From Asterionella formosa (lineage: Eukaryota): 38,017 nucleotides of DNA. Made by a program: the position numbers and the translations under genes. The stretch lies in contig NKIB01015149.1 of assembly GCA_002256025.1 (NCBI GenBank), positions 1 to 38,017 on the forward strand, in the 5' to 3' direction. The notes under the pieces were generated by a model. That model had not been told where the DNA came from. It saw only the letters and a list, made by a program, of their open reading frames with translations, and did not search any database. Of the stretch, positions 9,427 to 28,800 are shown piece after piece. How positions within the stretch are numbered: the first letter of the stretch is position 1; every line of letters begins with the position of its first letter.

Positions 9427-9614
9427 CTACTATCCTTCAGCCATCGACCGAACTATGAATTCTTTTGGTTTTCGCTCTTCACTACGAGAAAAAGCGACTG
9501 AGTCGCTTTGTCAAATACTATTTATCGGTTTCGTAAACCCATTTGTGAATGCCAGTTTCGTCCTTGCTTGTACGCCAGGAATTGAGCAGAAATTGGGAAA
9601 TAATAGCTAGTAAC

Positions 9615-12485
9615 TTAGTTCAAAGATGTTTCCTTTTTCTTTGATTCAAACAGGCGCCGTACTACCAATTCGAGCACCTCCGCAATCGGTTTGGATCGAT
9701 TTGCCATATCTTTCATAGTAGCCGCCCACAACTCACCGTGTTTGGGTTCAGCAGTTATACATCGTGCTTTCACCTTTTCTTGTTGCTCCTTTGTACCAGC
9801 TCCGAGTTCAAAGGCATAGTAGAGAGCAAAGAAGTCACCTATGCCAGGATTCAATACCACAGCGCGATCAAACCATTTTCGGGCTTTGTCATGCTTGCGA
9901 TCAGACGCAAAGAGTGATGCAACCGCTGCGATCACGTAAGGATCTTCCGGACATCGTTTTATGGCGTCCGCGCACTTGGACTTTTGTTGAACCTTTGGGG
10001 CAGTGGTAATATTTTCGGCGAGAAGTAGACCAGAGGAAGGACAATCTTGAAGCGCTCGAGCCATCAAGGCTTCTGCTAGTTTCTCGTTTCCAGCTCGACG
10101 TTCCAGTCGAATGCTCTCTAACCATAATGCTGGATTTTTCGGGCAGTTCAGGCGGGCTTGGTCGAGCACACTTCGAGCTTTGATTACTCCAGAGCCAGAT
10201 TTCCCCGAATTCTTGGGGTCGAACGTATGTGCCATTTCTTCCAATCGACTTGTGAGAATCCAAAGAGTCACATTGTCGGAACATTCCTTGAGCCCACGTT
10301 GGTAGAATTTTCTTGCACGGCCCAACGACGACTTGTCCTTCTCAAGATCATCCGATAATATTTGACCACCTATCATATAGTTCTTGGCAAACTTTGGGTA
10401 CTTCAGAATCCCTTGTTCAATCAGTTCCAGCGCTTCAAAGAATTGGTGTTTTTCCCTTTCTAAAATAGCAGATTTCATGAACACACGGGCAGTTGGCGCT
10501 CGCTCTCGTGCTCGTTGAAGGAGCACCCTAGCTCGTTCTGTTTCCCCAGTTTCCCACTCCACCTTGGCAGCTGCTAGCCACACAGCTTCCGAGTTGGGAT
10601 TAGCTGCAAATGCTTCGGTCAGAATCTCCCTCGATTTGTCGATCTCACCAGCTAGCCATCGCTCTTTGGCACGGAATAACCAAAAGATCTCAACACTTGG
10701 TAAACGTGTACACGCCGCAGCCAAGACGTCGTCCAGTGATGCAGCAGTCCCGTGATTGCGTTCCAAGTCGACTGCTTGCATCCAAAGAACTTGCTTGGCA
10801 GGAAATGCAGCGAGAGCATGAGCTATTATTGCTCTTGCAGTAACGATCGCCCCACGCGACAATGAATTCTTGGCATCGTCCGCCCAAGTTCGTTGGCGAT
10901 CTTCTGGATCTACCCCCAGCCCGATGGAGTGCTGAACAATGGCTCCACATGTCAAAGGCGCCCCCGAAAATTCTGCACTTTCAGCCTCATGCAGCCACTG
11001 GCCTCGAGTGACAATAGCGTCATTTTTGGCCAATGACTTGACGGCCTTATCGACAATCTTGTCAACCATTTCGACGTGATCTTGTGATTCTTCTAGTTTG
11101 GCTGCAGCAATCCAAATCGCCCTTTCTGCTGGTAAAGCTTTTCTAGCTTGATTCAGAACCTTGCGAGCATTTTCATAGGATTCCAGTCTCGCTAATGCCA
11201 GCCACATTTCAACAGATTGAGGGACTTTTTCTACTGCCAAAGATAGCAAGACTCTGGCATCGTCAGCTCCCTCCAATTCAATGGCGGCCTTCCAAAGCAT
11301 CACTGATGTTGGGTTCGCTTCCAGTGCTTTTCTCAGCACAGCTTTTTTAGCAGATTCGATTTCTTCTAAATCTGCTGCTCTCAAAAATATTTTGACTGAT
11401 GTTGGTATTTTTCGCACAGCTGTCGCTAGAATCGATTTGGACACTTCTGGAGGGTGCAATCGAGCAGCCTCTAACCATACATCTTCGTTGGTGGGACAAA
11501 CTTCACAACCCTCTTGAATCAATTTTCTTGCTTGTAAAATCTTCCCAGCCGCTTCTTCTACACGCGCCGATGCTATCCAGCCCGGCCCATGCTTTGGGTT
11601 CGTGTCTCTAACTGACTTGAGCAAAAGTCGTGCCTTATTGATGTCGCCGATTTCGGCACTTGTCGCAATCTTCGTACTGGAAAGGGACGTCAAATATCCA
11701 CTGCGGTCCACTTCGGTTTTTGCAGCCACTGATGAATCCGCCATTTTATCTAGACTCATCCCTAACACAGTTCCGCGAGCTTCTGCTAACCCTGACATGT
11801 TGGTGACGGTGGACTGATACCCAGACATGTCTACGGTTGTGGCGGATATGGCCTTATTTCCAGCAGTCGCATCTGAATTCGCCATTGCTTTAGTTTCAAG
11901 TAGAGTGTCAGTGATGGGCGTGAATATTTCTTCTCGTCTATTTTTTTGTTTGAACTTGAGCGAGTTATCTCCAACATCAGGAATATTCATCCATTCATCT
12001 TCTGTGACATCTGCTAACTTCTCCTTCAGTTCTCTAAATTGAGCTCCAATCCGTTGCCTAGCAGTTTGCGTCGCAATCTCATCCACCTGGTATTCACGCT
12101 TTCGTTTTGAATTCATTCGTTCCTCAATCGCCGCATAAATATTGTCAGCTTCGTCGTCATCTTGATCAAAACGCTGTTGAATATTCGGCCTACTATCGTC
12201 GTATCCAGAAAATTCATCGTAACCAGTCGGCCCATCATTATTCGATGCTGGAGTTCCTGCTCCTCTTCCAGCTCCCGCAATGTATCCCTTGGGTGCGTTT
12301 CCAAATGCTGCTCGTAAACCGGACGCTCGACTTCCCGAGTCTGCGCCAGTCGATTCGGTGGTGGAGGCGCTCGCTGCGGTCATTGGTCCTATGTCCGACC
12401 GGGTCGTAAATCCAGCAGCTCCACGCCCTAAGCCGGGTATATAGCCTTTCGGGGCTGGTTTAGAACCGCCACGAAAGGATGACAT
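9615..12485 (-). CDS. PRP6: Pre-mRNA splicing factor PRP6 (U5 snRNP HAT/TPR protein)
   Basis: 956-aa intronless ORF with PKGYIPGLGRGAAGFTTRSDIGP, DDDEADNIY, GDINKARLLLKSVRDTNPKHGPGWIASARVEE, many HAT repeats and C-terminal AEPKHGELW. Confidence 0.98.
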   Translation of the reverse strand: MSSFRGGSKPAPKGYIPGLGRGAAGFTTRSDIGPMTAASASTTESTGADSGSRASGLRAAFGNAPKGYIAGAGRGAGTPASNNDGPTGYDEFSGYDDSRPNIQQRFDQDDDEADNIYAAIEERMNSKRKREYQVDEIATQTARQRIGAQFRELKEKLADVTEDEWMNIPDVGDNSLKFKQKNRREEIFTPITDTLLETKAMANSDATAGNKAISATTVDMSGYQSTVTNMSGLAEARGTVLGMSLDKMADSSVAAKTEVDRSGYLTSLSSTKIATSAEIGDINKARLLLKSVRDTNPKHGPGWIASARVEEAAGKILQARKLIQEGCEVCPTNEDVWLEAARLHPPEVSKSILATAVRKIPTSVKIFLRAADLEEIESAKKAVLRKALEANPTSVMLWKAAIELEGADDARVLLSLAVEKVPQSVEMWLALARLESYENARKVLNQARKALPAERAIWIAAAKLEESQDHVEMVDKIVDKAVKSLAKNDAIVTRGQWLHEAESAEFSGAPLTCGAIVQHSIGLGVDPEDRQRTWADDAKNSLSRGAIVTARAIIAHALAAFPAKQVLWMQAVDLERNHGTAASLDDVLAAACTRLPSVEIFWLFRAKERWLAGEIDKSREILTEAFAANPNSEAVWLAAAKVEWETGETERARVLLQRARERAPTARVFMKSAILEREKHQFFEALELIEQGILKYPKFAKNYMIGGQILSDDLEKDKSSLGRARKFYQRGLKECSDNVTLWILTSRLEEMAHTFDPKNSGKSGSGVIKARSVLDQARLNCPKNPALWLESIRLERRAGNEKLAEALMARALQDCPSSGLLLAENITTAPKVQQKSKCADAIKRCPEDPYVIAAVASLFASDRKHDKARKWFDRAVVLNPGIGDFFALYYAFELGAGTKEQQEKVKARCITAEPKHGELWAATMKDMANRSKPIAEVLELVVRRLFESKKKETSLN

Positions 12486-12760
12486 GGTGATTTCAAAAAA
12501 GATGATCTAGACAGGGCAAATACATGAGTGGTAGATTATGACACACAGAATGAAAAATGAAAAATAAAATAAAATGGTTTCTTCGACGTTTCGATGTACC
12601 GGCATGTCGGCATGCCTCCTCCTAAAATGATGATAATTTATTGTCATATTGTCTGTCATCACTAAAATTTTCCTGTCCTCATGATAACGTCATGAGACAA
12701 ACAAACAAAGTGGTATGTTGCTGTACATTTTTAATTCTAATCATGCACATGCATATGATT

Positions 12761-12805
12761 ACTGGTACCAGGTACCTGGTACGGTACCTGGTAGCTGGTA
12801 CCAGT
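12761..12805. repeat. Quasi-palindromic GGTACC/CCWGG micro-array abutting the left TIR
   Basis: ACTGGTACCAGGTACCTGGTACGGTACCTGGTAGCTGGTACCAGT; the first and last 10 nt are reverse complements. Confidence 0.9.
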
Positions 12806-12992
12806 AAAAAACCGCCATGACGCATTGAGTTGGGGTGTTTGTTTGACTTCTCCAACAAAAGGTAAATTCTATCGAATTTCGGACCCATCTGTTTGATAGA
12901 ACAGCATCGATCAATCAAGCTGTCATGTTAAAATTCTAATCAAATGATTACATCAGAAGATACAATGATAATAAAACAGCTAAGAAGTGATT

Positions 12993-13010
12993 TCAATGGG
13001 TCATGGCAGT
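12993..13010. repeat. Internal partial TIR copy, inverted relative to the left TIR
   Basis: TCAATGGGTCATGGCAGT is identical to 24623-24640. Confidence 0.9.
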
Positions 13011-13196
13011 CGTATATACATTTTTTCTGGATAAATTTATATACATTTTCGAAGACGGATTAGGTCATGTGTTATTGCACTTTTATTTCATTATAATACA
13101 TTTTTACTAAAATCATATATTCATGATCCCACACCTTCTACCATCATGATACTCTTCCGACTTTCAAGTCCAATGGTCAGATCATTGCAATCCCAT

Positions 13197-13550
13197 CGTC
13201 TGCAAATAAAAACTATCATGAATATAGGATCAAGGGTATCATACGCTAAGTGGCACAGGAATTTTACATATAAGATAGTTTTTCGATCAAAAATATGATC
13301 AATGTATCATATAATTATAATCATGCAGTAAACTTTTACCAAGCTTGAAGTATGATGATAATATCATAGTTAAAATGGATTCCATTGCATCAAATAATTA
13401 GTTAAACATGGTCATATGATGTGTATACTTTTGTCATACATCTGTCTTAGCATGATCGTAATTCTCATCGATATCACTGTCTAAAAAATAGAATGAAATT
13501 GATCGAAATTTAGAATTATATTTAAGAATGTTTTTATGTTGCTTTCTATA
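13197..13550 (+). repeat. Internal repeat module R, left copy (inverted copy at ~23430-23884; partial copy from 14076)
   Basis: CGTCTGCAAATAAAAACTATCATGAATATAGGATCAAGGGTATCATACGCTAAGTGGCACAGGA...CTTGAAGTATGATGATAATA aligns with the reverse complement of 23718-23884. Weaker similarity continues to ~13550 versus ~23430. Confidence 0.85.
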
Positions 13551-13770
13551 TCTTGACTGGCTACAGAATGTTCTACAATGCCCTCATCGCAATGATTGGT
13601 GCTTCAGCTTTCACTTCCACCTTCCCCCCAATCAAGTTCTGAAGGTTGTTGTACTGGTTGCCTTGCCGTTATTCCCCTGCTTTGTTCCATTTAATCCTGA
13701 CGGATCTGAGTTTACATTCACGCATTTTCCCATTACTATTGAATCCGTTTCGTTGTTCCAATCAGCCATA

Positions 13771-14077
13771 CTAACAAAGAGAAGCAATTCATTGTTAGCT
13801 AGCTGTTCATGTTTTGCTTACACAACAACATGCATTTCGCTTCTATCTTCACTTACCACAAATTGAGGAAGTAACTGATGCATATTTCTGTAAAAGAATG
13901 TGTCAGTTGAAGATTGAATGAGAAAGTTTCGATCAATAAATGGGCTCCAACTCTGCTCTTCTTTGTAACTTACAAATACTGCTTGTCTACCATTATCTTG
14001 AAAGAAGCAACACATATGTGTCAGTTTTTCTAACAGTTGTGGATTGATCTAAAAATGATAGCACTTACCGATTTTGT
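13771..14077 (-). other. Micro-exon/intron unit in the left transposon arm (coding status unclear)
   Basis: Three GTAAGT donors (14068, 13973, 13856), each with a CTGAC/CTAAC branch site and AG acceptor (13997, 13888, ~13771). Exons are 9, 23 and 31 nt. The unit is homologous to 22927-23254 on the opposite strand. Confidence 0.65.
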
Positions 14078-14786
14078 CTGCAAATAAAAACTATCATATT
14101 TCCATGATGCATCATAAAATCGTGATCATCTGATCATAATTTTTCGTTATATCATCTAATAATTTTGAAAAATGCCCTTGTAATTCAAATAGTAACCCTT
14201 TTGACTACATATATTTAATTATTATATGTATTGTTTCTATTAGATTCCTGTATTCGAATTTCTTGGCAGGGTAATATACCAGCTAAAATAATGCAATTTG
14301 GCTTGTCATTTCCATCCGTCATCACTCCGATTTTTGCAACAATAACGAAATACTAGCGATGACAAGTGGAATGATTGTTTGCGATAACGACGTCTTCAAT
14401 TGTTGGTCATGTGATCATTATATCTTTGAGTAATCGTCATGTGCAGAGAACCTTTGTTCATAACCATTCAATTAAGAGTTTACAGAGAAGAAATCATTCA
14501 AACTCGTAATGGTTCCGCACACAGCGCACATTGTGAATCCGTTTCGTCGACCACCAGCATTACAATCTCGCCAATCAACCCATAAACAAACACATTCTAC
14601 TTGTTCTCGTTGACATTTTCAATTCTCACATGATACTACATCTACTATTGAGATTCAGCATAGAAGGAGATACGAAAATGTACGTAACAGACTACAGTCC
14701 ACATAGCTATAGTTCTTATAGAATGATTCAGATTACAATTTCTTTCTCATGTCGCTCGTTTCTGCATTTGGCATGAAGCAGGTGGC

Positions 14787-15167
14787 TCTCTTCATTGTTG
14801 TTTGCTTGTAGGAAATATTTGTTGGAACTGTCCGTTGCCTCAAACCTGCTTGGCGTGTGCGTACACACACTGCCGACTTGTTTTCATTGGTATGTTGTTC
14901 TTGTATTCACTGTTGAGCTTATCCGCATCTTTGTTACCATCAATTGAGCGACAAGTGGGTGCGTCTCTTCATTGTTGTTTGCTTCTGGAAAAGTCGGTGT
15001 CTGTGTCATCCTCATCAATAGAGGGACAAGTGTCCTTCATCATTGCGGTTTGCCGCTGGAAAAATTGGTACCCGTGGTATCGTCATTCGCTCGTTGGAAC
15101 CAGCCACTGTCCGTTGCCTCAAACCTGATTAGCGTGTGTGTATGTGCACTGTCAACTTGTTTACATT
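14787..15167. repeat. Degenerate internal direct repeats inside the transposon
   Basis: TCTCTTCATTGTTGTTTGCTT...GGAAA occurs at ~14787 and ~14965, with a weaker third copy at ~15033. GTTGGAAC..CTGTCCGTTGCCTCAAACCTG...ACTTGTTT.CATT occurs at 14821-14888 and 15093-15167. Confidence 0.85.
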
Positions 15168-15514
15168 ACAGGAGTGACTTAGCTACTAAAGTGCATGTTA
15201 TAATATCATGCTCCGTAGTACAATGCAAAATACTACAGTTCCCAATCATCTCATCATGATTGAAAAGCAAGGTGATAATGTGATATCAGGATAGGTTTAC
15301 ATTGATGCATACATCGCCAAAGTATGATACGTAATATTGAATAAAGCATATCACATAACTATGATACATTGATCATAGGACTGTGATGATTTTTAAAATG
15401 TTTATGATATAATTTTGATCAAAATATGATCATGTTAAAATAATACAATGACAATAAAATACGATAAAATATGTATGCAAGTGTTATCGATACATCAGAG
15501 AAAATAAATAAGTC

Positions 15515-16283
15515 TCACTATTCGTCCAGAACGCACATCAAGATGAACATCATGAAAGCAGAGAAACTATCGCATTTCTAAAAGAAAAGCATTATATTCA
15601 AGAAAAAGTCCGAGCTAGATCAAGACCTCGAATTCAAGAAGATCAATGCAGACAGAGATGTGATGCTGGCTAAGGCAGTTGATGCACTGAGCGAGTCAGG
15701 AACGAAGTTTGAAGAAAAAAATTGTCCAAATCATACATGGAAGAAAAAGAATTTCTCTGTAAAATCATCGAGAACAATCCCGAAGGCAACTAGCTACTTT
15801 TGTGAAGAGTCAGCATGTGAAATATGTAGAGTTATTATGCCAAGCAAAGCAAACTGCATTTTCCTTGAGTTTGCCGAAAACGCATGGACAACTAAAGTTG
15901 TGAAAAGATTTGTACACACGTACCCCACAAGAACTATGCAATTACGCCTCTGTATTTTATGGATTCAAAGGTGGTATCAAAAAATCATCTTCAGATATTA
16001 AAGATCTTGCATATTGGGTCCTTGAAAAAATTACCTCTATGATCCATTATATAATTCATGAACTTTATCCAACTGATGTAAAGGTTATACTATATTTGAT
16101 CTGGGTGATAACCCAGAAAAGGGTAATAACAAACCATCTATATACCAAGGTGATTTTCATCCACTTCATCATGAAAGTAACTATGTGCTAATTGTTTATT
16201 GCAAACGATCAGATGAGGAGGAAAACAACCATTCAAGGAACGAATACACGCTAAGAGAATGGTTGTTGTGTTGGAGAAAATAA
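15515..16283 (+). pseudogene. Decayed ORF of unknown function, convergent with the transposase
   Basis: Overlapping + strand frames (15660-16001, 15910-16191 and a third to ~16283) give protein-like text across frameshifts: ...LAKAVDALSESG...CPNH...CEESACEIC...DLAYWVLEKITSMIHYIIHELYPTD.... No family recognised. Confidence 0.4.
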
Positions 16284-19200
16284 CATTTCCCCAAAGAAGT
16301 ACTTTTGCCGGAACTGTGTAGGAACTTGATACATCTCCTTTCTCTCAGGTCACTTCAACCCAGTCAAACCATTCACGACCAGAGATTCCTGGCTGCATTT
16401 GAATCATTATTTCATTTCGGATGGCATCTGAGAATAGTAGTTTGGCCGGGAACATTACTTTCAATTTGAACATGATAATGAAAGTCAATCCTTACAATGG
16501 AAACAGGCCCAACCCCATCCTCAAGACTTTTAATTCTTGCTATTTCTTTTGCTGAATTCGCAATTCTCTTTACGTAGTTGGCCCCCTTTGGTAAATCAGG
16601 ATGAACCAATTGAGACAAGGGTGCATCCTTCCTCCGTGATACATGCCCAATCTTATTAGGGACACCTGCTATAGTCCATATGACCAGCTATTTGATGATG
16701 AAGCAGAGAATTGAACTTTAACAGACAGGAAGGGATGCATGGTGAATGGATCTTGGTAGGCGATATTCCCAAAATATCAGGCGACATACTCCTAGGCAAC
16801 ATCCTTGTATCCTGAATCATTCCCTCGAAATCAATTTCTGTTGAAATACCCTCAGATACATTGATGTATACTTTACTCATCTTCTTTTGTTTGTTTTCTG
16901 TATGTAATGAATCACTTGCAAAAACAATTTTTCGTGCCAAGGAAAACTGCCTTGTTTTATATGACCTTGTTAAAATGTCATGCTTTAATCGATGTAATTG
17001 GCTGTCCATTGACGCGCTTACTGGGTTGCTGCTCGTTTCAGTTTGTCTTTCGAAAAAGACTCCAAATATTCACCAAAGAAATTAAGAGGAGATCTAAACT
17101 TCCTAATCAGATGAGGGTAATGTTTCATTGCATGAGATTTTGCCATTCGTAAGTCAATTTGAGATATCATTTCCCGTTGGGGACCAATCATAATCTTTGT
17201 AACTGACATAAATCTATCTCTTAACTCTTTCCTCTAAAATATCAATACTGTACATGTTGATGTATGCTGCGGTATGAATAAGTTTCATTGATAGATATAC
17301 ATAACCATAACAGCAATGTGAAATCCTTTTCTAGGTGCATGTTCTCTGAACCCATCATTCCACCCATTGAAAAAATAGTTAACAGACATAATCCGGGAAT
17401 TTCTTGCCTTGCCTGACATTTTTGACAAAGCTGTCATCCCAGATCTGTATGACAATTTTGGAATATCACGATCGCTTTGCCTTGCTTTTCAAATGACTAT
17501 TGATATATCTAGCAGCCACTTTGTTCGAAGTATACTTTCGAAAATAGATGCATTTCTGGTGCTGGTACAAGTGTTGGGTCTTGATTTTTGCCAGTGTAGA
17601 TATTTTTGGTAAATGGTGCGAGTGTCGCTCCTTTTTTGTCTTTGCCCGTTTCTCCGCTTCCTCTTGATCAAGAAAAATATTGTCTGTTGTTTGAGTGATA
17701 CGTTTCTGATCCGAGATGTTCTATGGAATATCTGGTGTGGTGATTTTCTTTCTTTAAAAAAACATGTCCATTCTTCAGGGATAGTCCGATAATTGTACAA
17801 TGATTCCAAAATGTGTGAACTTAAATATTCCAAGTAGTAATTGATGAAGAACCTCAAATGGAGTTGCACCAAATAATCCTTCTAAGTCACCACCAAAAAA
17901 ATGATTAATTAGTGCAGGCATAATAGGATTTTGCGATATAACTCGGCACCACTCGTTTGCTGTTGCGTATTTGCCATTAGATTGGGAGACACAATACTCA
18001 GGTGGGATGCATGGAGGCCGATATGCATTTTTGTCAAGAAATTTGTTTAAAAACTTTTAAACATCTGTTTTTATCATCTGACACTTTACAATGTTCACAT
18101 CCAATATCGGGATTATCAGCATCTTCAGTTGAAACCAGGCAATCACGACAAACATATAGTCGATATAATCCATTACCACCCCTGAAACCACAAATTTTGT
18201 GTGCCCTTCTGTATCATTAATGATCATTCCAATCTGGAAATAAACTTTTGTCATACCAAGACCATGAACCCAAATATCGTATAACTTGTTTGGATCAATC
18301 TTCGAAAGGCGATAATAGAAATCCTGTAACAGAATGGTATAATTTGAGTCGACATAAGGACAAGTCGTCACCAGATAACTTATTATTCATTTGTTTCTCC
18401 AGATCACTTACTTCAATGTCTGGCAAAAGAGATACCAATTGCCATCCATCAACTTTTTTCATTCCTTCATTCTAACGTTAAGTTTAACATTGTCATCAAA
18501 AACGGATGCTCGGAATGTTTCATTTGTTTATCAATAGGTGAACCATCACTGAAAACTGCTAGGGCAACAAATAAACACCCTGTCTTGCCTTCAACACTCC
18601 ATTTTCTGATGCAGGAGAATTGTTGAATGCATTTTCAAACCAAGTCGCGGAAGTTACTTCGTTATATATGCGTTCTCCACAAGTTGTAAGAAATTTCACT
18701 TGTGGTTGACATAAAAAATGTTGCATGATATCGGAATCACGTAACAATCCTGCCATGATCTGTACTGGTGCGAAATAATGGAGTGTGCGTGGGATGATCA
18801 TGTTTGAATTGTTATCAATCTGTATTTGTTTGGTCAACAGTTGACCACCAGCTAATGTTGGTGGAAATGAAATATCCATGCGTTTTTTCAAAGTCTGGTA
18901 GGATGGAGCTTGATACGCCACCTTCCATCAAAATATTTCATTGCTTTGGCCTTGAACAGCCATTTCATTAGATGATCAAAGTAAACTGGTGGAAGGTAGG
19001 TAATTCTCGTTAAGGAGTAACATGAGTTCTATTTGATTGGATGTATGTTTAGAGAATGTTTACTTGGAAGTTGAAATTGAGGAGGAAGGGGCATTTCCAT
19101 TGCATTTTCAGGGAGAAAGCCGGTGTGATCTTGGAAATCTGAATATTGCATGGTCTCTGAATTCAATCCTTGGAGAGTTTTTAGTCTCAATTGTTCGTCT

Positions 19201-19562
19201 TGTTGTAAATGAATATTGTTATAAACTGAATTGTCGCTGTCGTCATGAAATGAATAACTGTGGCCACTTGATTCAAGGAAAGGAAACATAATCTCTTCTT
19301 GTTGTCTACTCTCCCTAAATGCTGCAGCAGTTGTTACTACACTGCCATTAACTTCTTTCCTTGAATGATTCAATGCACTACCGCAATACATAGTTTCATT
19401 ATGCTTTCCAGGAACTCGATGTTCTTGCATGCAATGTCGACAGTGACCATATGCATAGAAAACACGGTTGCTACAATTTCGTTTGTGAGACTCAGATGGG
19501 GATTTGTTCTTCCGAAATTTGTAGTTACACAGATAACACCATTGCAATGTCCGCAAAGACAT
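16230..19562 (-). pseudogene. Plavaka-type DDE transposase with N-terminal Zn-finger-like motifs, disrupted by many frameshifts and stops
   Basis: Manual translation across frames gives, in order: CYLC..H..C and CRHC..H..C; GERIYNEVTSATWF; LAVFSDG (D ~18546); HPFLMTMLN; GWQLVSLLP; RLKLYHSV; IINDTEGH-K-ICG (D ~18214); CRDC; FGGDLEGLFGATPFEVLHQLLLGIFK; RQSDRDIPK..GMTALSKMSG; KSHAMKHYPHLIRKFxSPLNFFGEYLES (E ~17061); RCHP...WFDWVEV...PAKVLL. This matches the motif order known for Plavaka transposases. The 3' end is approximate. Confidence 0.85.
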
Positions 19563-19861
19563 TGCAAATTTCAAATGATGACAAAGTCAGGATATGAACA
19601 GGATAAAATGAAAATGAATGATTAATAATAAATTTAGCATCACTCTGATCATGCTGTGCTGGACAATACAGAGTCGTGAAATTAGCACTCCACCATAGTA
19701 GTAAAAATGGAGGTATACCACTACATACAGTAAAGGCGCCACTACTAGTATAGAGCAACATCAATGTTTTCCTAACATCTATGATATGGTTTGTGCATTG
19801 TAGAAGTCTCACACTAACTATATATATTATGTAACTACTAAGCATGCATTCTTGGATTCTG

Positions 19862-21860
19862 TTAGAGCCATTCAAAATCAACGTCGTCATCAATGTCCTA
19901 TTGATTAATGCGTTCATGGTAATCAATATTCTTCTCAGGAACATTTGGCTGAAGTGGTTCAACATATTGATGCATATCCTCTTCACTTACATTGGGAAAT
20001 GAGAAGTATGAGTTTGGGTAGATGATATTTGTTGTGGAAGTAGCAATTCCACTAGGAATCCTTCCATATTCAGATCGATTCTTTTGTGAAAGTCCAGTGT
20101 AGATTTCCTTATAATAACCGAGTAACTCATCAGTCCATTGATCAGTGAGACCATTTGAAACTGAACTTTCTTCCCTCACATTTTTTGATAAGTGGTTGCC
20201 CACCAATGTCGACAAAATCAGTAGAATGACGAATATTGTTGCTTCTCTGAAATTTCCTGCGTATCTGGATTGAAACCCAAATTTTTGTTGCAATCGGAAT
20301 TTTCCTTTCAGCACCAAGAAGCAAAATGCTTCTGTACTGGCATTGATTAGAAAACCAACAAAACGTGATTTTAATTCACACTGTGCCCAAGGACTCAGTT
20401 GAAATTTGATCACACCAGATTTGTCTCTTGTAAAAATGGTTCTCCACAGCTTGTTCTGCCTATAAAATGCACTGGAGCAAGAACATCACGCCAGACTTGG
20501 TATCCTTGGCCTGGCTTCCCCTGTCAATGTCCTTTGACTGCGCAAAACGATAAAGCGTGAACGCCCAACTAATAAAGTCATCAATATCCATAGTCTGGAA
20601 GGAGTTATATTCTGTTAGACCAGCTGGTGTGTCATGAATTATGTTAGCATTTTTAATTCAAACATATTTGATAAGAATATAATCAGCAACTCAGAACATC
20701 ATGCTTTCAGAGCATCTCCCACCCTGCAAGAACTTACCTAAGATTCCTTTAATTTGATTATTCAATACATTCTGACATTCTCTAGCTCAACTTTTTAATG
20801 CACATGCCACCAAATGTTGTTTTAATATAATCTAAACGTGCCTTGTTGGTATGTTCAATGGTCTGATTCATTGGAAGTAGTGAATCAGAACCATTCCATA
20901 TGAAATCGGCAAGCTCTGAGTCACTTTCCACTTCTTTGCCTAACTCCGGTTTCACTGTGTGTAGCCGAGTTAGGCAGGTAAACATTGGGCAAACCAATCC
21001 TGGCTGTTTGTGATTGGAAATGCCCTTCATACTACTTGGACCAGATTGGCAGGGCGGGATGTTTGATTCTCTTTTGGGACCAGAAAAAAGCACATTAGAT
21101 TGAAATTCTTTTCTACAGTACCTGCAATTCACGAACTATAACATCAAACTTACATGTTCACAGCAAAACTTCTTGGTCTTGAAAACAAATAAAACTCACA
21201 ACCTTTGTGACAATTGATGGATCGGTTCAATTTTAGCTAAGCAGTAAGCGGGAACGACGTTCTGATTAGGCTGCTGAAATTGAAGATTCTTGATAACCTC
21301 ATATGGACGAGTTTTGAACCGAATTAGGACCTTTGTAGTGATTGAGTTCATTGACCAATTGAAAATATCCTTTGGCAATTGCAGATTGTTTTTCCCTCAG
21401 TTTTTCTTGTACTTGTTGGTCCGTGTGATTAGAAAATTTATGATATGGTACCATGTTGTCCATCTGTTAATGGTATCATCGACAGGAGCCATTTTTCTTG
21501 TATCAACAACTGAAAAAGAAACGTCATCATCGCTTTCAGTATCAATTACGGGAGCCTTTGTACTAGTTGCTGATGGTGTCCCCATCAACGGTGGGGTAGT
21601 ACCCCCACTAACTCCCTGTTGCCGATTGGGTTCCTTTGGATAGTCGTCTATTCGCTTTTTCTTTGTTATCTCATTTTGGTACTTGCTTCTTTGTTCCATA
21701 CCAGCAGTATTTGCCACATGTCACTTGTTTCCATGAACCTCTTTATTGTTTTTTGAAGACATTGTACTACTCGATAACTGTTGTCGTTGTCTGCCTTAAA
21801 GTTCGATGATCTTAAAATCAGGTGTTGCAAACTACAATGAAATGAATCATCAGCCAGCAC
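19862..21860 (-). pseudogene. Second decayed ORF of the transposon (accessory protein, unknown function), co-oriented upstream of the transposase
   Basis: Consecutive minus-strand fragments (21666-21860, 21397-21717, 21196-21378, 20782-21132, 19898-20413) are separated by stops and frameshifts. There is a probable intron at ~20737-20624 (GTAAGT...GCTAAC...CCAG). It ends in an acidic tail DIDDDVDFEWL*. Confidence 0.6.
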
Positions 21861-21968
21861 TACATGTAATATTTTACGCTGTCTAGATATGATACCATAA
21901 AACCAACAGTGCTATTTACATTATCATATACAAAATCAGAACCGAGTTTGAGTAATAGCATATCTTGT

Positions 21969-22203
21969 TTTCAATTATACGATTATATGATCTTGAAACT
22001 ATGATGCTTTACTGTCCCACTGTAGTCGCAACAGCCCTGAATATATGGTGTTCTGTTGCTCGCTTACTACTCCGACTACCCTCTTTCAATTATACAATCA
22101 TATGATCCTGAAACTATGATGATTTACTGTCTCACTGCAGTAGCAACAGTCATGAACAAATGGTGTTCTGTTGCTTGCTTACTACCTGGTACTCTGACTA
22201 CCC
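21969..22203. repeat. Two-copy 115-bp tandem duplication inside the transposon
   Basis: TTTCAATTATAC.AT.ATATGATC.TGAAACTATGATG.TTTACTGTC.CACTG.AGT.GCAACAG...ATGGTGTTCTGTTGCT.GCTTACTAC starts at 21969 and again at 22084. Confidence 0.93.
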
Positions 22204-22819
22204 CCAGTATATCACTTCCTACCTGCTACTGGTACTCTGTATATAGATGATAAAATGTTATTGTCATATGATGTACCGGTACACATGAAGAACTCCCGCC
22301 CAAAAAAGGGGCTTAAACAATATGCTACCAAAATCCTTGTGTATAAAATGGGTTATGACTTACACCAATTGAATGGTCTGCCGGTGAATAATTAGTTCCA
22401 AAGGTCATAGATAATATTGATGCAAACAAATTTCAGAAATAATACCAGTACACGAAGTCGTGGAAAACAATGGACATATCATGCATTGAATATTTTCGAA
22501 TTATCTATATGCAAATATGATCATCTCAACAATAGCTACCCGACGTTCCATATTGAGAGTGCCTTTGATTTTTATAAATGTACGACACTTGATTTATTTA
22601 TATATTTACATGGCAAATATATTTGAAATCGTTCTGTCATGTTAACAAACAATGCCTGCTTCATGAAAAGAAATATGCAAAGTAGTAAAGCACATGACAA
22701 GAAAGGAAAGTTTACGCAATAACGAAAAACATTGTGGCTTCGACACATGGCGCCTTCGAAGGATGGAGTATGTTTAAGGTAATGAAGCCATCACTGTGGT
22801 ACTTGGATGAAAATCGTTG

Positions 22820-23254
22820 GTAGGTAGTTCAACAACAAATTGTAAACTAAACGCACATTTCCTTTTTTCTCGGTTGAATCAACAGCTTGTTTCGCTTTTT
22901 GGGGAGCACCAAGAATGTAAAACAAAACAAAATTGGTAAGTGCTCTTGTCATTGGACCTATTCACTTCTGATGGAACATAACTGACGCCGGACACGCAAC
23001 TTTACCTTCTCTCAAGTTAAGCTAATGAAAATGAATCGGTAAGTTTTATTCGGCAACATTGGAAACCTGAAACTCACTTATTCAAGAATTTAGCTACTGA
23101 CAATTTACTATTACAGACTTATACATCACTTGCTTTGATTTGGCTGTGGTAAGTTAAGCAAGCAAGAGGATACGATGGAATGGCGTGATGTTGTGTCAGT
23201 GTAACATGTCTAGCTAACAAGTCGTTCCTTCTCATTGTTATTGTAACTGCATAG
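22820..23254 (+). other. Micro-exon/intron unit in the right transposon arm (four short introns)
   Basis: Candidate introns 22820-22885, 22936-23016, 23039-23116 and 23149-23254 have GTAGGT/GTAAGT donors, CTAA/CTGAC branch motifs, pyrimidine-rich tracts and AG ends. Internal exons are 50, 22 and 32 nt. No intact long spliced ORF results. Confidence 0.7.
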
Positions 23255-23429
23255 GACAATAAAAACGATCAAACGGAATAGCCGGCGAGTTCAGAATGAC
23301 ACTAACAGCAGTGAGAGAGACGCAATATTAGTAAGGCATTGCTTGGCACAAGATTCAGAAAAGAGGAAGAAAAGGGTGAGACAGGAACAATATACATTGA
23401 GCCGAGTAGAGAGAGAAACGTTGGGTCAC

Positions 23430-23884
23430 TGGCATGTAGAATAATAGATAGCATTGTTGCTAAATTTGATAGCTAAACTACGATACATTTCAATCTATTT
23501 TGAAAAATGCTTGTGATTAGAATTATGATGATGTTTACGATAGATTTACGATGAAACAATTTAAATGATAGCATAGAGTTGAGCTGATTTTAGGATGCGT
23601 TGTAGTAATAATTTACATCGGGCAATCATGAGAATTGAAAATAATATGAGAGGGTTTATGATGATGTTGAGTAATGTTGTTGATCAGTTGATATACATTG
23701 TGTGATGATAACATTCTTATTATCATTATACTTCAAGGTCGGTAAAATATTTATAAATCATCATAGTTATAGGATACCTTGATCATATTTTTGATCCAAA
23801 AATTATCATATAAAAGAAAATCCTGTGCCACTTAACGTACAATACCCTTGATCTTATATGCATGATACTTTTTATTTGCAGACG
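23430..23884 (-). repeat. Internal repeat module R, right copy
   Basis: Reverse complement begins CGTCTGCAAATAAAAAGTATCATGCATATAAGATCAAGGGTATTGTACGTTAAGTGGCACAGGA, matching 13197 onward. Confidence 0.85.
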
Positions 23885-24168
23885 TCTTTTCTTGAAAGAA
23901 TACCCATGTTGGGGACAGCAGTGACACTTGCCTTTTGTAACCAGTACTAGTCGACTTTCTTTTTTGTCAGCCAAGGTAAGTATACCTTCTAAGCTTTCAC
24001 CATGTTAGTAATTGTTCTGTAAGGGAGCTTTCCATTATTGTTCGCCTTGATTGCTTCAAGCTCTGTAACAATGCCAAGCATGTTGCATTGAATAACGACC
24101 TGAGCATAATGAAGTGCTTTTGTCTTCTTCTTGATGTTGGAAACTCGACTCTTTCTTGACTTTGGCAT
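23872..24168 (-). pseudogene. Truncated, decayed gene fragment in the right arm, possibly the N-terminus of another transposon protein
   Basis: CCACC-ATG at 24168 gives MPKSRKSRVSNIKKKTKALHYAQVVIQCNMLGIVTELEAIKANNNGKLPYRTITNMVKA*KVYLPWLTKKKVD*YW...RKDVCK*. It has two in-frame stops and ends in the first bases of repeat R. Confidence 0.5.
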
Positions 24169-24668
24169 GGTGGGCTAGTGATGGTTTGCGTAATAGCTGT
24201 GGACTTTTTTCCTATGTATTGTGGACTGACGAATGCATATATATCAAAATCCTCAATCAGATATAGGCACGCCCATATCATTTGCCATCTCTGTAGTACA
24301 ATTCAATACCAAAACAAAATCTATATTGCTGTAAATGTGGTTAACGTTCAGACACTTATTAAATCAATCTCGAAATTTTTGTATACATCGTTGTATATTA
24401 TATGACAATGAGAACTCCAAACTTACCCTAATCCATCTTCTCTGTGTTTTTTTGGTCGATTCATCACTATTTCCGGCAATCTACAGAGATGAACAACTGA
24501 CTCCAAATCTCAAACTAAATACATAGCTGACTAGCCTACATGCTCAAGAAGGAGCCTGAACTCTCAGAATTTACATTTACTAAAGTTTTGTAAGCAAAAC
24601 GTGTTATTCTTCAAAAATATTCTCAATGGGTCATGGCAGTTTTTTACTGTTGCCAGGTCCCTGGTACC

Positions 24669-24757
24669 TGCATGCTGCTGTAATTGTGCTGACTCTAAAT
24701 CTTTAGCTGTCTTTATCCTATATTAAATTGTTTATTTAAGCCAAATGACCGCAACTT
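24669..24757 (+). repeat. ~85-bp dispersed repeat, copy 2
   Basis: TGCATGCTGCTGTAATTGTGCTGACTCTAAATCTTTAGCTGTCTTTATCCTATATTAAATTGTTTATTTAAGCCAAATGACCGCAACTT; see 716-801. Confidence 0.9.
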
Positions 24758-24758
24758 G

Positions 24759-25020
24759 CTGGTACCAGGGTGCCAGTGGGTAGGTACTCCATACCTATTA
24801 GAGGTACATACTGTAATTCTGCATGTTAACTACGTATAACATAGAATCGTTCCTGGTACCAGGTACCAGGTACTCTTGCACACCTACCGGTACCATGGTA
24901 CCAGGTACCAGGTTAAAAGGTACAGTACCAGTGCACCTGGTACAGGACGCCGTTGTACCCCGAGAACAGGTGGTACCAGGTACCTGGTACCTGTTACGCT
25001 CTCTGGAGCTCTGGAGTACA
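24759..25020. repeat. GGTACC/CCAGG/CCTGG-rich low-complexity array
   Basis: Dense runs such as CCTGGTACCAGGTACCAGGTAC, CCGGTACCATGGTACCAGGTACCAGG and GGTACCAGGTACCTGGTACCTG. Confidence 0.9.
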
Positions 25021-25811
25021 TATTACCTGATATAGTTCTTGCAAGGTTGGCCAGCCTGTGCGATAAGAAATGATCACCATGGTCGGACTTTTAGGTAACA
25101 GCCAATCAGAGTAGTGTATTCTTGATAATCTCTTTTGTGTAAGTCTGTCCATCAAACGCTATTGGTGATAAAAGTCAACTTCTATTCTTCTATATTCCCA
25201 AAACGAGCAATGCTTCTCGGAATGCTAAGGAGTGGCACAAAAACGGGGAACAAAACAAAGCCGCACACACACTGTGTCTACCGGGTATCTGATCGAAAGG
25301 AGGCAGGATCAAATAGCTGTTGGGTCAGAGTTGCTTGATGATGCGATTGTGTATTCCGAGAAGCATGCAAAGCTAGCAGCAGCCATTTTGAGGCTGAGGG
25401 TCTTTCTTCATGAGAATCTTGTCTGCAACTATTTAAGCTTCTGATAACCCTCCATCTCAACACGTCGTCTTCTTCTCCTCATCAATTGCGTTAATCTGCC
25501 GGAATAGCCAATTGTCCTTCCATTGGCTCTATCTGCACTTTTTCGAGGTAAGAGCCTTGAGGATCGTTTCCTCCTAACGACTGGTACTAATTCCCTGTAG
25601 AATCGGTACTGTTACGATCCTTCCTGTCAATCTTGACAGTCTGTTTCGTCTTTGGTGCTACACACATGCTGCCCATGCCTCCCCATTCATCTCATCATTG
25701 CTTTTGCTAGTCTCTGTGGTATTCTGCATTAGACTACAGTGTAATTGCGGGTCCCGCAGTGCTACCTATTGCACTACAACTACTACTCCTTCTCATACAC
25801 ATATATCTAGA

Positions 25812-28800
25812 ATGAGCGGAACCTACAGCGATTGCGAAAGCGACTCGGAAGTCGCGCAACATACGTCGTACGAGGATGCGCCTTCAGCCTCCATTGTCGA
25901 CGATGCTGAGGATGAGGACTCCGACGAGGACGAGGACGAGCCTCAAGTTACGGCGGCGGTAGTTGTGAATGACGATGAACCAGAAGCAGTGGCAGCTGCT
26001 GTCAGGACTCCTTCCAAAGCTAAGGGGAAAAAGAAGCGAAGGACAAATGAGATTTCTCGAGACAATTTTGAAGCTGCCCAAGCGGCACGATTGATGCTGG
26101 TCCAGGCGGTCCCTCGACTGCCGCTGACAGTATCAGAAACTCATACCGTTCGCTCGTTTGGACGTTTACGCGTGGAAAAGCAAGAGGACGGGCCTCTGTT
26201 TAGCAGTACCTCTGCCCTCTATCCTATTGGCTTTTCTTGCGACCGATTCGAGTTTAGTCCTGTCCACGGGCGCATCTTAAAACTAAGGTGCACAATTCTA
26301 GATGGACACCTTGTGCAAGAAAAGCAGCGTGAACTGAAGCTTCCCGTCTTCCCTACTAAGGGACCCATATTTCGCATCATGTGGGGCGAAGGAATTGATG
26401 ACGAGTCAGAAGCTTTTGACTACCCCTATAACCCATACAGCAACTCGTCAATCATTACCAACAACGGCAACCCCAAAAAACCCGGCCATGTTGGGTCCGA
26501 CACATTCCCAGAGGAGGGCATGCGTGTCCGTGTCCGGTATGAACACGATCAGTGGTATACAGGGACAATTCGCGAATGCGTTGGGGGTGATGCTAACTAT
26601 CAAACTGGTGAAATGACTTACGAACTGCGCATTGCATATGACGACGGATCGGAAGAGCAGGTTTCTTTTCCCGACCCTGATATATCACTTTATCAACCTG
26701 GTGCGTTACTGAGGTTGCAATGATTCACCTGCGATTTTTATTTCCCTTTCTTTAACTCAATCTGCTTTTGCTTTCCATAGGATCTGAAGACTCTGCAATT
26801 GAAGATGGGATAATTGAGCTCACGGAAGTTGGCGGAAAACCAGTAACCTCAGTTGTCGGACATTCACCAATCCACGCTTGGGGGAAAGCATTGGCTGCCC
26901 TTGGTCTGATTGATGAGATCACACTCGCAACGGCTTTGGAGGCCCTCAACAACAACAGGGAACAGGGCATGGATATTGCTAAAGATAACTTTGAAGCGAA
27001 GAAAAAAGCTCGTGCCGAATGGAGGGCCAGACAAAAAGAGAAGGGAGTCAGTTCACCTGTACCCTCTACAGCTGAAAGTCCAGGAGGCGAGAAGAAAGAA
27101 ATGGAAGAAAAGGATGATGAACCTAACTCGGAAGAAAAGAAGAATGACAACGATGGTGAAGTATACGAGCCTCACTCGGAAAAGGAAAAAAAACGCCGGC
27201 GGGAAGTAGAATTTCTGAAAGCCGAGCTGGAGAAAGCGCGACAAGACGACCGCGAAGCGGCGATCGCTCTCTCTGATGCGCGGATCAGCTACCTGGGTCC
27301 GTTCATGTGCAACCCGTTTCAAAAGCATGACACCAATTATGCTCAAGAAATTTCCTGGCTTACGACTGTAGTAAGGAGAGAAAAACACAAGATGGGAAGT
27401 ACTGGTAGCAAAAAGAAGATTATCATGGCGACAGATTTGCTCGAGAGAAATAACTCCTTCTTCAACCCAGACATTGAAACACTTGTGGAGGGTCTTCCAG
27501 GTAGCGAATGTTGTAGCGCTTATGTTTTCCAAGCGTCTCGTGCTGGCGGTGCTGCAGCTGTCAGTTCAGCATGGATCCACGAAGCGAAGCTTCGTCAAGA
27601 ACGGGAACGAGAGAAGCAAAAGGAGAAAAAGGCCCCGAAGGAAGTGGCGATTTTATCGGTAAGCAGCCAGCACGAAAAGGACGCCAAGAGAAAGGAGCGA
27701 GAAGATCTCAACAACGCGCGAAAGAAGCAGAAGCAAGATGAGCTGGATCAAAAGAAGGCAGTTCGTGCTCAGGAACGCCTCACGCGACTCAGTTTGCAAG
27801 TAGACGAACGGCTGTTTAAGGAAGCATGTGTCCAGCGTGAGAGGGTCGTTGTTAACATGCAGAAGTTTCTCATGAAAGAGTTCGCAAAGCGACGGAAAGC
27901 CGCAGAGCTTATTGCAAGTCAATCCGTGCTGGACAGTACAGAGACTGAGGCAAATGAAGACATGAGTCATAAGTTGATTGATCTTTCGCCTCTGGGCAAA
28001 GTTTACGACGAAGTCGTCCTTCGTTTGTGGGATTTCTTTTTTGCTTACGGCGAGATCTTTTTGAAATGGGGCTACCTGGATAAAGTTCCAACCCTGGATA
28101 ATCTACAAACAGCAATTGACGCTTTGCGCGATTCTGACTCGGAGAAACGACTGTCGTCTTCATCGATGACTAGGACCGAGGCATCGGCTTTCCTGAATGA
28201 TCTTGCTATTGTGATGTGTAAGCCTATCTCAGTTAGTTTGACTCGTGTCCTGTTTGCAAGTTTGATAGCTTTGAACCCTGCTCTACAGAAGGACTTTGGG
28301 GCAGCTTTCTTTGCCGAAATTAGAACGAATGCCGATACTACCACGGAAATGACTGCTGACAGACCATCGGAAGGTAAGACAGTATCGGATCTTCTCCCTG
28401 TCACCAAATGGACCTGGCAAGAGATTGCAAGGTTGGCTTTCCTTTCCGACATTACAGTCGCATTAGGCTACCAGAAACACGAAAGTGCTCATTTGCTGCG
28501 TGGATATCGAAGTGGCGGTCATCCAAACTCAAGAGAGGCCAAGCGCCTTAAAAAGAATGAAGAGTTCAATACATCAGTGCTGAGACAAAATATTGTTCTT
28601 GGTGGTGAGGAAGAGTCAGGGACAGAAGGTTTGCGCATCAGAATTAGTGCTCCTTCCAAGCCGTCCGCTTCGGCAAGTGACTGGGATTTCTATCTTCACA
28701 ACATCAAAGGGTTGTCCTTAGGAAAGAAATCCTTGATCAAGAAGAACATCACTGCATGTCTGTCAGCTTTAGATTCAGGCAAACTCTCGGATGAGCTGAA

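Follow-up and report, generated by a model that had tools for sequence, protein, structure and literature searches.

Two outward-facing, intron-dense units in the arms of a transposon

The genome of the freshwater alga Asterionella formosa, an intron-poor eukaryote, contains an old DNA transposon whose two ends each carry a short unit made of small introns and micro-exons that reads outward, toward the tip of the element. The stretch of DNA analyzed here (the window) comprises 38,017 nt of assembly GCA_002256025.1 (contig NKIB01015149.1, positions 1-38,017, forward strand). Copies of this family of units are spliced in natural RNA, and the two types of arm have kept in common only an upstream block, the splice signals, part of exon 3 and a 176-nt terminal repeat. 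We consider it probable that the units are the intron-dense, non-coding 5' leader of an outward transcription unit in a Plavaka-like transposon, and that splicing itself has been the object of selection.

Both units lie inside the element, 630-880 nt from the tip, and fall within its last ~1.45 kb. Each reads toward a transposon tip, as a first-pass annotation made from the sequence of this DNA had claimed. The features of the two arms are listed below; a slash marks an exon-intron or element border, WR denotes the right arm of the window in alignments, L type and R type denote arms that resemble the left and the right unit, respectively, L numbers denote related loci, and X numbers denote RNA runs.

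13197-13372 (-): left terminal inverted repeat block, with the tip (...TTTATTTGCAGACG/) at 13197; pairs with 23709-23884
13373-13770 (-): region of the last exon of the left unit; unconserved relative to the right arm, no common open reading frame (ORF) (MAFFT)
13771-13856 (-): left intron 3, GTAAGT..CTAGCTAAC..TTGTTAG; RNA joint
13857-13887 (-): left micro-exon 3, 31 nt; aligned side of an RNA joint
13888-13973 (-): left intron 2, GTAAGT..ACTGACA..TTACAG; RNA joint
13974-13996 (-): left micro-exon 2, 23 nt; aligned contig sides
13997-14068 (-): left intron 1, GTAAGTGCT..AACTGAC..TCAAG; signals conserved with the right arm, RNA support indirect
14069-14077 (-): remnant of left exon 1, 9 nt; L006 and L008 have a longer exon 1, the upstream intron and the promoter block
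14076-14097 (-): extra copy of the transposon tip, 22 nt, truncating left exon 1; 95% identity to 23883-23862 (blastn), also found by motif scan
15513-21820 (-): decayed interior; 89-91% identity to L011, tblastn with L011 ORFs
22457-22646 (+): upstream block common to L-type and R-type arms, presumed promoter; alignment of WR, L011, L005, L006 and L008
22779-22885 (+): right intron 0, AAG/GTAATG..CAACAG/; donor kept in WR, L011 and L005, acceptor in both arm types
22886-22935 (+): right exon 1, 50 nt
22936-23016 (+): right intron 1, homologue of left intron 1 (z = 6.7); signals conserved
23017-23038 (+): right micro-exon 2, 22 nt
23039-23116 (+): right intron 2, homologue of left intron 2 (z = 4.4); fits the intron pattern
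23117-23148 (+): right micro-exon 3, 32 nt; 28 nt in other R-type loci
23149-23281 (+): right intron 3, candidate acceptors 23254 and 23281; X5 joint
23282-23708 (+): region of the last exon of the right unit; unconserved relative to the left arm
23709-23884 (+): right terminal inverted repeat block, with the tip at 23884; pairs with 13197-13372

Splice signals are kept where exons and intron interiors have diverged

Positions 14077-13771 on the minus strand and 22927-23254 on the plus strand are collinear inverted homologues, a relationship already proposed in the first-pass annotation and recovered by three methods. A repeat search found the inverted pairs 14028-14077/22927-22976 (72%) and 13743-13802/23210-23269 (70%), and blastn aligned 13772-13907 with 23240-23096 (69%). 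The MAFFT alignment places the words quoted in the annotation in both stretches: GGTAAGTGCT, CTTCTyTCAAG, GTAAGTT, ACTGACA, TTACAGA, TGTGGTAAGT, CTAGCTAACAA and CTTCTC.TTGTTA are identical in the two units. Each unit contains three complete consensus introns of 72-106 nt (GTAAGT, CTGAC or CTAAC, pyrimidine tract, AG), and the exons between them have the predicted lengths (23 nt left and 22 nt right; 31 nt left and 32 nt right). The 9-nt "exon" that the annotation placed at the start of the left unit arises because the tip copy at 14076 abuts the remnant of left exon 1.

Identity between the left and right units is complete at donors (18/18) and branch points (15/15); it is 23/29 in pyrimidine tracts, 6/9 at the last three intron letters, 37/63 in exons and 91/218 in intron interiors. 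Overall, 39 of 42 splice-signal positions are identical versus 151 of 296 at all other positions (Fisher p=4e-8), bearing out the claim that the signals persist while exons and intron interiors have diverged. The pattern GTAAGT..CTRAC..YAG matches six times in the 38-kb window, always within the two units, where 0.39 matches are expected and none of 100 shuffles reaches six; this count is descriptive, the pattern having been taken from the units themselves. Downstream (3') of intron 3, the arm types are essentially unalignable up to the terminal repeat.

Counterpart introns of the left and right units give pairwise z values of 4.4-6.7, and pairs of introns within one unit give 1.5-3.5. We considered and rejected introner elements as the source of these introns: those within a unit are not alike, and no copy occurs elsewhere in the window. 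Because the left and right units differ by ~30%, they do not stem from a recent duplication. The arms are old, diverged types in a rearranged element, with no recent or clean duplication between them.

Units of this family are spliced in natural RNA

To place these predictions against natural transcripts, contigs from four RNA runs (three studies) were aligned to positions 9600-27000 of the window at 85% likeness. Runs X1 and X2 belong to one study and X5 to another. The runs that contain the window's PRP1/Prp6-type splicing-factor gene are lake-water, freshwater and algal metatranscriptomes; contigs from X1, X2 and X5 match this gene with 0-1 differences, and the organism is therefore present in these runs. 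Contig depth is a sum over organisms and copies, and expression was not ranked by it. Statements about joints rest on the 15 of 81 joints that were listed.

The left unit is represented by one contig with two joints in each of X1, X2 and X5 (three runs, two studies). The joint 13887->13974 (X1, X5) skips 86 nt, exactly the predicted intron 13973-13888, and its borders are CT..AC on the plus strand, hence GT..AG in the minus-strand direction; X1, X2 and X5 also have the variant 13887->13977. The other joint, 13764->13857 (X1, X2, X5), carries two extra letters. The junction predicted here was 13856-13771; its donor is exact, and the acceptor is compatible with 13771 given a paralogue indel, as in related copies (L006). 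The aligned contig side for exon 3 is 31 letters, the length of the exon. The sides for exon 2 are 24 and 21 letters (23+1 and 20+1), in each case the exon portion plus one letter, and the contigs therefore depart from the genomic sequence at the border of intron 1 and exon 2.

In the right unit, one X5 contig has the joint 23142->23283, with three letters between, from which intron 3 (23149-23281) has been removed. The predicted removal of an intron from 23149 thus holds, but the acceptor used in X5 RNA is AATAG/ at 23281 instead of 23254. L005 reads AATAG/TCGGCGAG at this acceptor, and a loose contig end in X5 carries R-type exon 3. No joint for left intron 1 (14068-13997), or for right introns 0, 1 and 2, is among the 15 of 81 joints listed; for the predicted junctions 14068-13997, 22936-23016 and 23039-23116, the evidence is the conservation of their signals between left and right, joined for left intron 1 by indirect RNA support. 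These observations establish that the units are spliced in nature, in family copies, and that the family is transcribed in natural lake populations.

Related loci define an L type and an R type

When metagenome contigs were scanned for acceptor 2 followed by 17 nt of exon 3, 11 loci matched, nine of them relatives of the units. L001, L002, L004, L005, L007, L010 and L011 are of R type, and L006 and L008 are of L type. The most intact copy, L011, spans 10.8 kb and contains minus-strand ORFs of 786, 374, 276, 130 and 218 aa together with one of 729 aa on the plus strand; it is 89-91% identical to window positions 15513-21820 and 82% identical to 22008-23255. At the right end, the leader transcription unit is divergent from the transposase gene.

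The contrast between splice signals and the remaining positions recurs when L-type and R-type loci are compared: 39/42 versus 162/285 for L006 and L011, and 38/42 versus 156/286 for L008 and L005. It is weaker at intermediate distance (WR and L005, 40/42 versus 222/280, p=0.007). Close copies do not show it, and some of them have broken sites (donor 1 of L010 and donor 3 of L008 read ATAAGT, and acceptor 3 of L006 is lost). Such a pattern would be expected if selection had acted in active lineages and single insertions had then decayed.

Homology between L and R types extends upstream through one more intron, of which the acceptor at 22885 is kept and the donor in R type is AAG/GTAATG (22779). 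The first-pass annotation had drawn this junction as 22820-22885; its donor (GTAGGT) is missing in related R-type loci, which keep AAG/GTAATG at 22779, and we have replaced it. L008, of L type, has ATG/GTAAGT near the corresponding intron 0 donor. Further upstream, the shared block at 22457-22646, presumed to be the promoter of the leader, contains a word resembling a TATA box (22570-22581). Two tandem repeats of ~115 nt (88%; 21969-22185) are found between this block and the transposase start, and also occur in L004, L005, L007, L010 and L011.

Two of the loci returned by the scan were rejected as relatives. The match in L009 is due to chance. L003, a phage-like contig, matches over 48 nt at one end: its 9.7 kb carry terminase-, portal- and capsid-like ORFs by eye, positions 1-48 are R-type sequence from the intron 2 branch point, and it is probably a metagenome assembly chimera. 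Viral contigs scanned with the exon-3 pattern and with the terminal-repeat pattern gave no match to either. A 442-nt palindromic insertion (foldback, resembling a miniature inverted-repeat transposable element) is present in L001 (~192-635) and L002 (665-1107), where it takes the place of the leader's intron 3 branch point and acceptor in a copy otherwise of L011 type. Exon shuffling, considered as a cause of breaks in homology at splice signals, was largely dropped: the L001 and L002 break is this palindromic insertion, L003 is a chimera and L009 is chance. One break that these explanations do not cover, between L011-type and window-type copies, does lie within one letter of acceptor 3 (23254/5).

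Coding capacity of the units

Exon lengths vary between types by one or four bases (23/22; 31/32/28). The longest spliced ORFs with an ATG are 45 aa in the left unit and 41 aa in the right and are unrelated to one another, in agreement with the claim that neither copy gives a long spliced ORF; the left-arm ORF has lost its start codon in L008 and is shifted in frame in L006. Across copies, no reading frame or peptide is kept of the sort that a micro-exon protein gene would maintain. Exon-length changes that are not multiples of three, together with spliced ORFs that are short and unrelated, point to a non-coding RNA.

The window holds a decayed, rearranged copy of a Plavaka-like element

The terminal inverted repeat is 176 nt long (13197-13372 and 23709-23884; 82% by repeat search, 83% by blastn) and ends in ...TTTATTT(G or A)CAGACG. 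Four unrelated flanks follow CAGACG (left and right in the window, L005 and L006), and the tip is therefore the border of the element. Read on the outward strand, the tip resembles a strong 3' splice site, with a T-rich tract and CAG three letters before the end (TTTTTATTTGCAG/ACG). Tips of this kind lie at 13197-13218, 14076-14097 and 23863-23884, and L005 and L006 have ACAG.

Judged by the relatives of its largest protein, the element is a Plavaka-like (CACTA/EnSpm-related) DNA transposon. The 786-aa ORF of L011 has 10 homologues at E<=1e-3 (best 1e-217), seven of which carry PF18759, Plavaka. A window ORF at 18559-18927 gives a weak direct match to Plavaka (E=0.0034; 17.1 bits, below the cut-off of 26.3; one of 15 ORFs), and the six ORFs of L011 give no direct Pfam match at E<=0.01. 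An excerpt of PMC12730594 groups Plavaka with EnSpm, Mirage, Chapaev and Transib; the same excerpt gives termini of TGT..ACA or CATCA..TGATG for fungal PlavakaA/B and CA..TG for the clade, with target duplications of 2-5 bp. The tips in the window read CGTCTG..CAGACG and match none of these known termini. No target duplication is recognizable at 13197/23884 (flanks ...CCCAT and TCTTT...); the copy is old, and its ends possibly come from different insertions, which makes this negative a weak one.

Tblastn places transposase pieces on the minus strand at 16234-21795 and the remnant of a second gene on the plus strand at 15500-16232. The RNA joints 20623->20738 and 21070->21154 correspond to the minus-strand introns 20624-20737 and 21071-21153 (GT..AG; contigs of 1.6-3.7 kb). 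The window's own transposase is fragmented and full of stops. The left unit is cut within exon 1 at 14076 by the 22-nt tip copy, and its promoter block is gone. The interior is truncated near 15513. Positions 14098-15513 show no relation to L011, and both L011 and every RNA contig are homologous from 15513-15535 onward; ~1.36 kb of L011 is absent from the window at 16232/3. The element in the window is thus an old, decayed, rearranged composite.

Several further observations concern the interior. The second gene (L011 328-2517, plus strand; window 15500-16232, plus strand) encodes 729 aa with no Pfam match; low feature-search scores (0.81-0.84) lean toward CE-clan cysteine proteases (Peptidase_C48/C57) and unnamed giant-virus proteins, which we treat as a lead only. 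Direct repeats of 40 and 62 nt lie in the stretch at 14776-15167, within the part unrelated to L011, where the RNA contig depths of X5 and X7 add up to very high values; a further high-copy repeat may have inserted here, separating the left arm from the interior. A 3673-nt X5 contig joins 15535-16233 to 19746-21820, with 979 other letters in place of 3512 bases, and may represent an internally deleted family copy or a contig over two convergent genes.

A probable spliced leader and its possible functions

Together, these results make it probable that the units are a non-coding 5' leader whose splicing has been selected. Under this explanation, the leader would start at its own conserved promoter block and read outward to the tip, crossing four short introns of consensus type (~72-133 nt) with exons of 22-50 nt between them; its last exon, free of constraint, would extend into the terminal inverted repeat. 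In active lineages, what was selected would have been transcription and splicing, and neither the RNA nor a peptide. In studies of fungi, nematodes and plants, poor or absent splicing has been connected with the silencing of transposons by RNA. The most likely use of the leader would be that promoter-proximal splicing keeps transcription of the end productive and away from silencing of unspliced or badly spliced transcripts. A further effect may be stimulation of the divergent promoter that the leader shares with the transposase. We infer the leader's promoter, the direction of selection and the function (licensing, anti-silencing or a boost to the transposase promoter). The first-pass annotation's suggestion of a duplicated, heavily spliced transcript, either a micro-exon peptide gene or a non-coding RNA, with selection on splicing is supported in substance, with the evidence favouring the non-coding form; what requires amendment is that the duplication is not recent and that the element is a decayed composite.

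A bolder version, which we regard as doubtful, is that each end keeps a splicing cassette (promoter, four optimal introns and throw-away exons) for which only the fact of being spliced matters, a counter-defence of a DNA transposon built from introns. In such a cassette, splicing would mark transcription of the ends as gene-like, so that the ends and the divergent transposase promoter stay active and out of RNA-based silencing; the splice-site-like tip, with its T-tract and CAG 3 nt from the end, may in addition let outward transcripts splice over the tip into flanking DNA.

Several points weigh against the leader explanation. The branch-point columns were picked with the sequence in view (the donors were not), and the related loci were found through acceptor 2 and 17 nt of exon 3, although the signal result is unchanged when those columns are left out. 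L001, L002, L004, L007 and L011 may be one locus from different metagenomes, and independent copies are few. The spliced contigs carry two to three extra letters at the joints relative to the window and therefore come from paralogous copies, not demonstrably from the window's own; they also have no strand, start or end, and "outward" therefore rests on the orientation of the splice signals. No transposase-like ORF lies within 1.4 kb upstream in the L-type copies L006 and L008, and a role limited to boosting the transposase promoter therefore does not fit. In L011-type copies, additional exons with a 42-aa ORF follow on from the leader, and coding use is possible in some lineages. Any role in silencing is hypothetical.

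That 42-aa ORF bears on an alternative that we consider unlikely though worth weighing, namely that the unit is the 5' untranslated leader of a coding accessory gene of the transposon, the arms in the window being pseudogenes without coding exons. In L011, L007 and L002, acceptor 3 is followed by a 65-nt exon with an ATG, another consensus intron (GTGAGT..ACTGACAC..CAG) and an exon that closes the ORF, as this alternative would have it. However, the leader that precedes the L011-type downstream part is 96% identical to that of L005, whose end is of window type, and the L011-type arrangement therefore looks derived; the older L-type and R-type ends have no common ORF, and short upstream ORFs precede the 42-aa ORF in the spliced leader. 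All three differences among L011, L007 and L002 change a residue, which is far too few for a test. Less likely again is capture of the 5' part of a host gene (promoter and intron-rich 5' untranslated region) as a portable promoter or passenger. DNA transposons of the wider group do capture host fragments, and the consensus signals of the leader introns are stronger than those in the window's two host introns, but nothing similar occurs elsewhere in the window, and the unit stands beside the terminal repeat in each of two anciently diverged arm types, so that any capture must be old and since maintained.

Two further readings can be given little weight. The conserved words might be DNA-level sites that resemble splice signals, for example repeats near the ends to which the transposase binds; CACTA-like elements typically have subterminal repeats, and ACTGACA and GGTAAGT are repeated within each arm. 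Yet the words occur in a single orientation and in the order donor, branch point, acceptor, three to four times over, and RNA contigs are joined exactly at them, which makes this reading very improbable. Least probable of all is a host gene for intron-borne small RNAs (small nucleolar RNAs or mirtrons). Although introns of 72-133 nt fall in the mirtron range, their interiors are the least conserved class of positions, none of seven introns folds better than shuffles (z -1.17 to +1.51), and the five Rfam matches (E 0.25-0.37) are all far below gathering scores; we rejected this candidate, finding neither a fold signal in the introns nor an Rfam family.

If the link to silencing applies, a spliced leader of this kind, with optimal introns in an outward non-coding transcript, would be the mirror image of silencing provoked by poor splicing: splicing would serve the mobile element as a passport. 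The leader would also offer a compact natural example of selection on splicing rather than on RNA sequence, in an intron-poor host that makes the signal easy to read. Independent of function, the family adds to the Plavaka-like transposons, which the papers found in this analysis describe mostly from fungi, an algal lineage with unusual tips and long, structured ends.

Host genes and other features of the window

The host genes of the window that bear on the analysis are as follows.

9615-12506 (-): unbroken ORF for a PRP1/Prp6-type splicing factor; PRP1_N (E=1e-31) and HAT/TPR repeats
25548-25710: host intron; RNA joint
26701-26780: host intron; RNA joint

These two host introns, with GTAAGA..CTAG and GTGCGT..ATAG, fall short of the leader introns in signal strength. 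Among the other large ORFs of the window, bromodomain, lipase and HA domains occur. G+C content falls from ~0.46 to 0.34-0.39 between 13 and 25 kb. An 82-nt repeat (716-794/24669-24750, 85% identity) is the sole similarity between the element region and the remainder of the window. GGTACC-rich repeats at 12759-12829 and 24622-25000 flank the element, around which an outer inverted pair, 12783-12829/24622-24668 (85%), is also found; CAATGGGTCATGGCAGT occurs again at 12993-13010. An RNA joint, 12785->24663 (X1, X2), was considered as the empty site of an outer element and rejected: its 23-letter side lies in the GGTACC repeat and is too short and repetitive.

Comparison with known systems

Literal word searches of the open-access literature returned no description of an intron-dense, non-coding unit in transposon ends, which is not proof of absence. 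One related element with a comparable transcript is plant En/Spm (CACTA), where a multi-exon transcript starts in the subterminal region, reads inward and encodes TnpA and TnpD. Papers on CACTA splicing in soybean include PMC2613891 and PMC4219821. Like the A. formosa element, it is a large DNA transposon of the same wider clade with several introns and transcription from a subterminal region; in contrast, the A. formosa unit is outward, non-coding, present at both ends and conserved only at its signals. In maize Mutator, an outward-reading promoter resides in the ~200-bp terminal repeat, so that transcription likewise runs from a transposon end toward flanking DNA. The presumed promoter of the leader, however, lies 1.4 kb inside the element, and introns and micro-exons are present; we know of none described for the outward promoter of Mutator.

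The antisense promoter of LINE-1, with ORF0, provides splice donors that join to flanking exons and resembles the leader as an element-borne promoter that points away from the main gene and has working splice donors. LINE-1, by contrast, is a retrotransposon that offers one or two donors and lacks a series of complete introns of its own, and we know of no two-ended arrangement of its antisense promoter. Introner elements are transposons that become introns of host genes. What they have in common with the A. formosa element is the pairing of a DNA transposon with splice signals of consensus type in an aquatic alga, and a tip like a 3' splice site; the leader introns, by contrast, lie inside the element's own transcription unit and are not copies of one another.

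A parallel in mode of conservation may be found among divergent spliced long non-coding RNAs (lncRNAs). In an excerpt of bioRxiv 10.1101/050948, the promoter, transcription or 5' splice site of such a locus, and not the sequence of the RNA, acts on the neighbouring gene, and an excerpt of PMC4338330 reports selection on splicing motifs in lncRNAs. As far as these excerpts describe them, the mammalian examples are host loci, whereas the A. formosa locus sits on a mobile element and any cis effect there is putative. What they would share is a spliced transcript with no conserved ORF, splice positions kept above exons, and divergence from a neighbour within ~1 kb.

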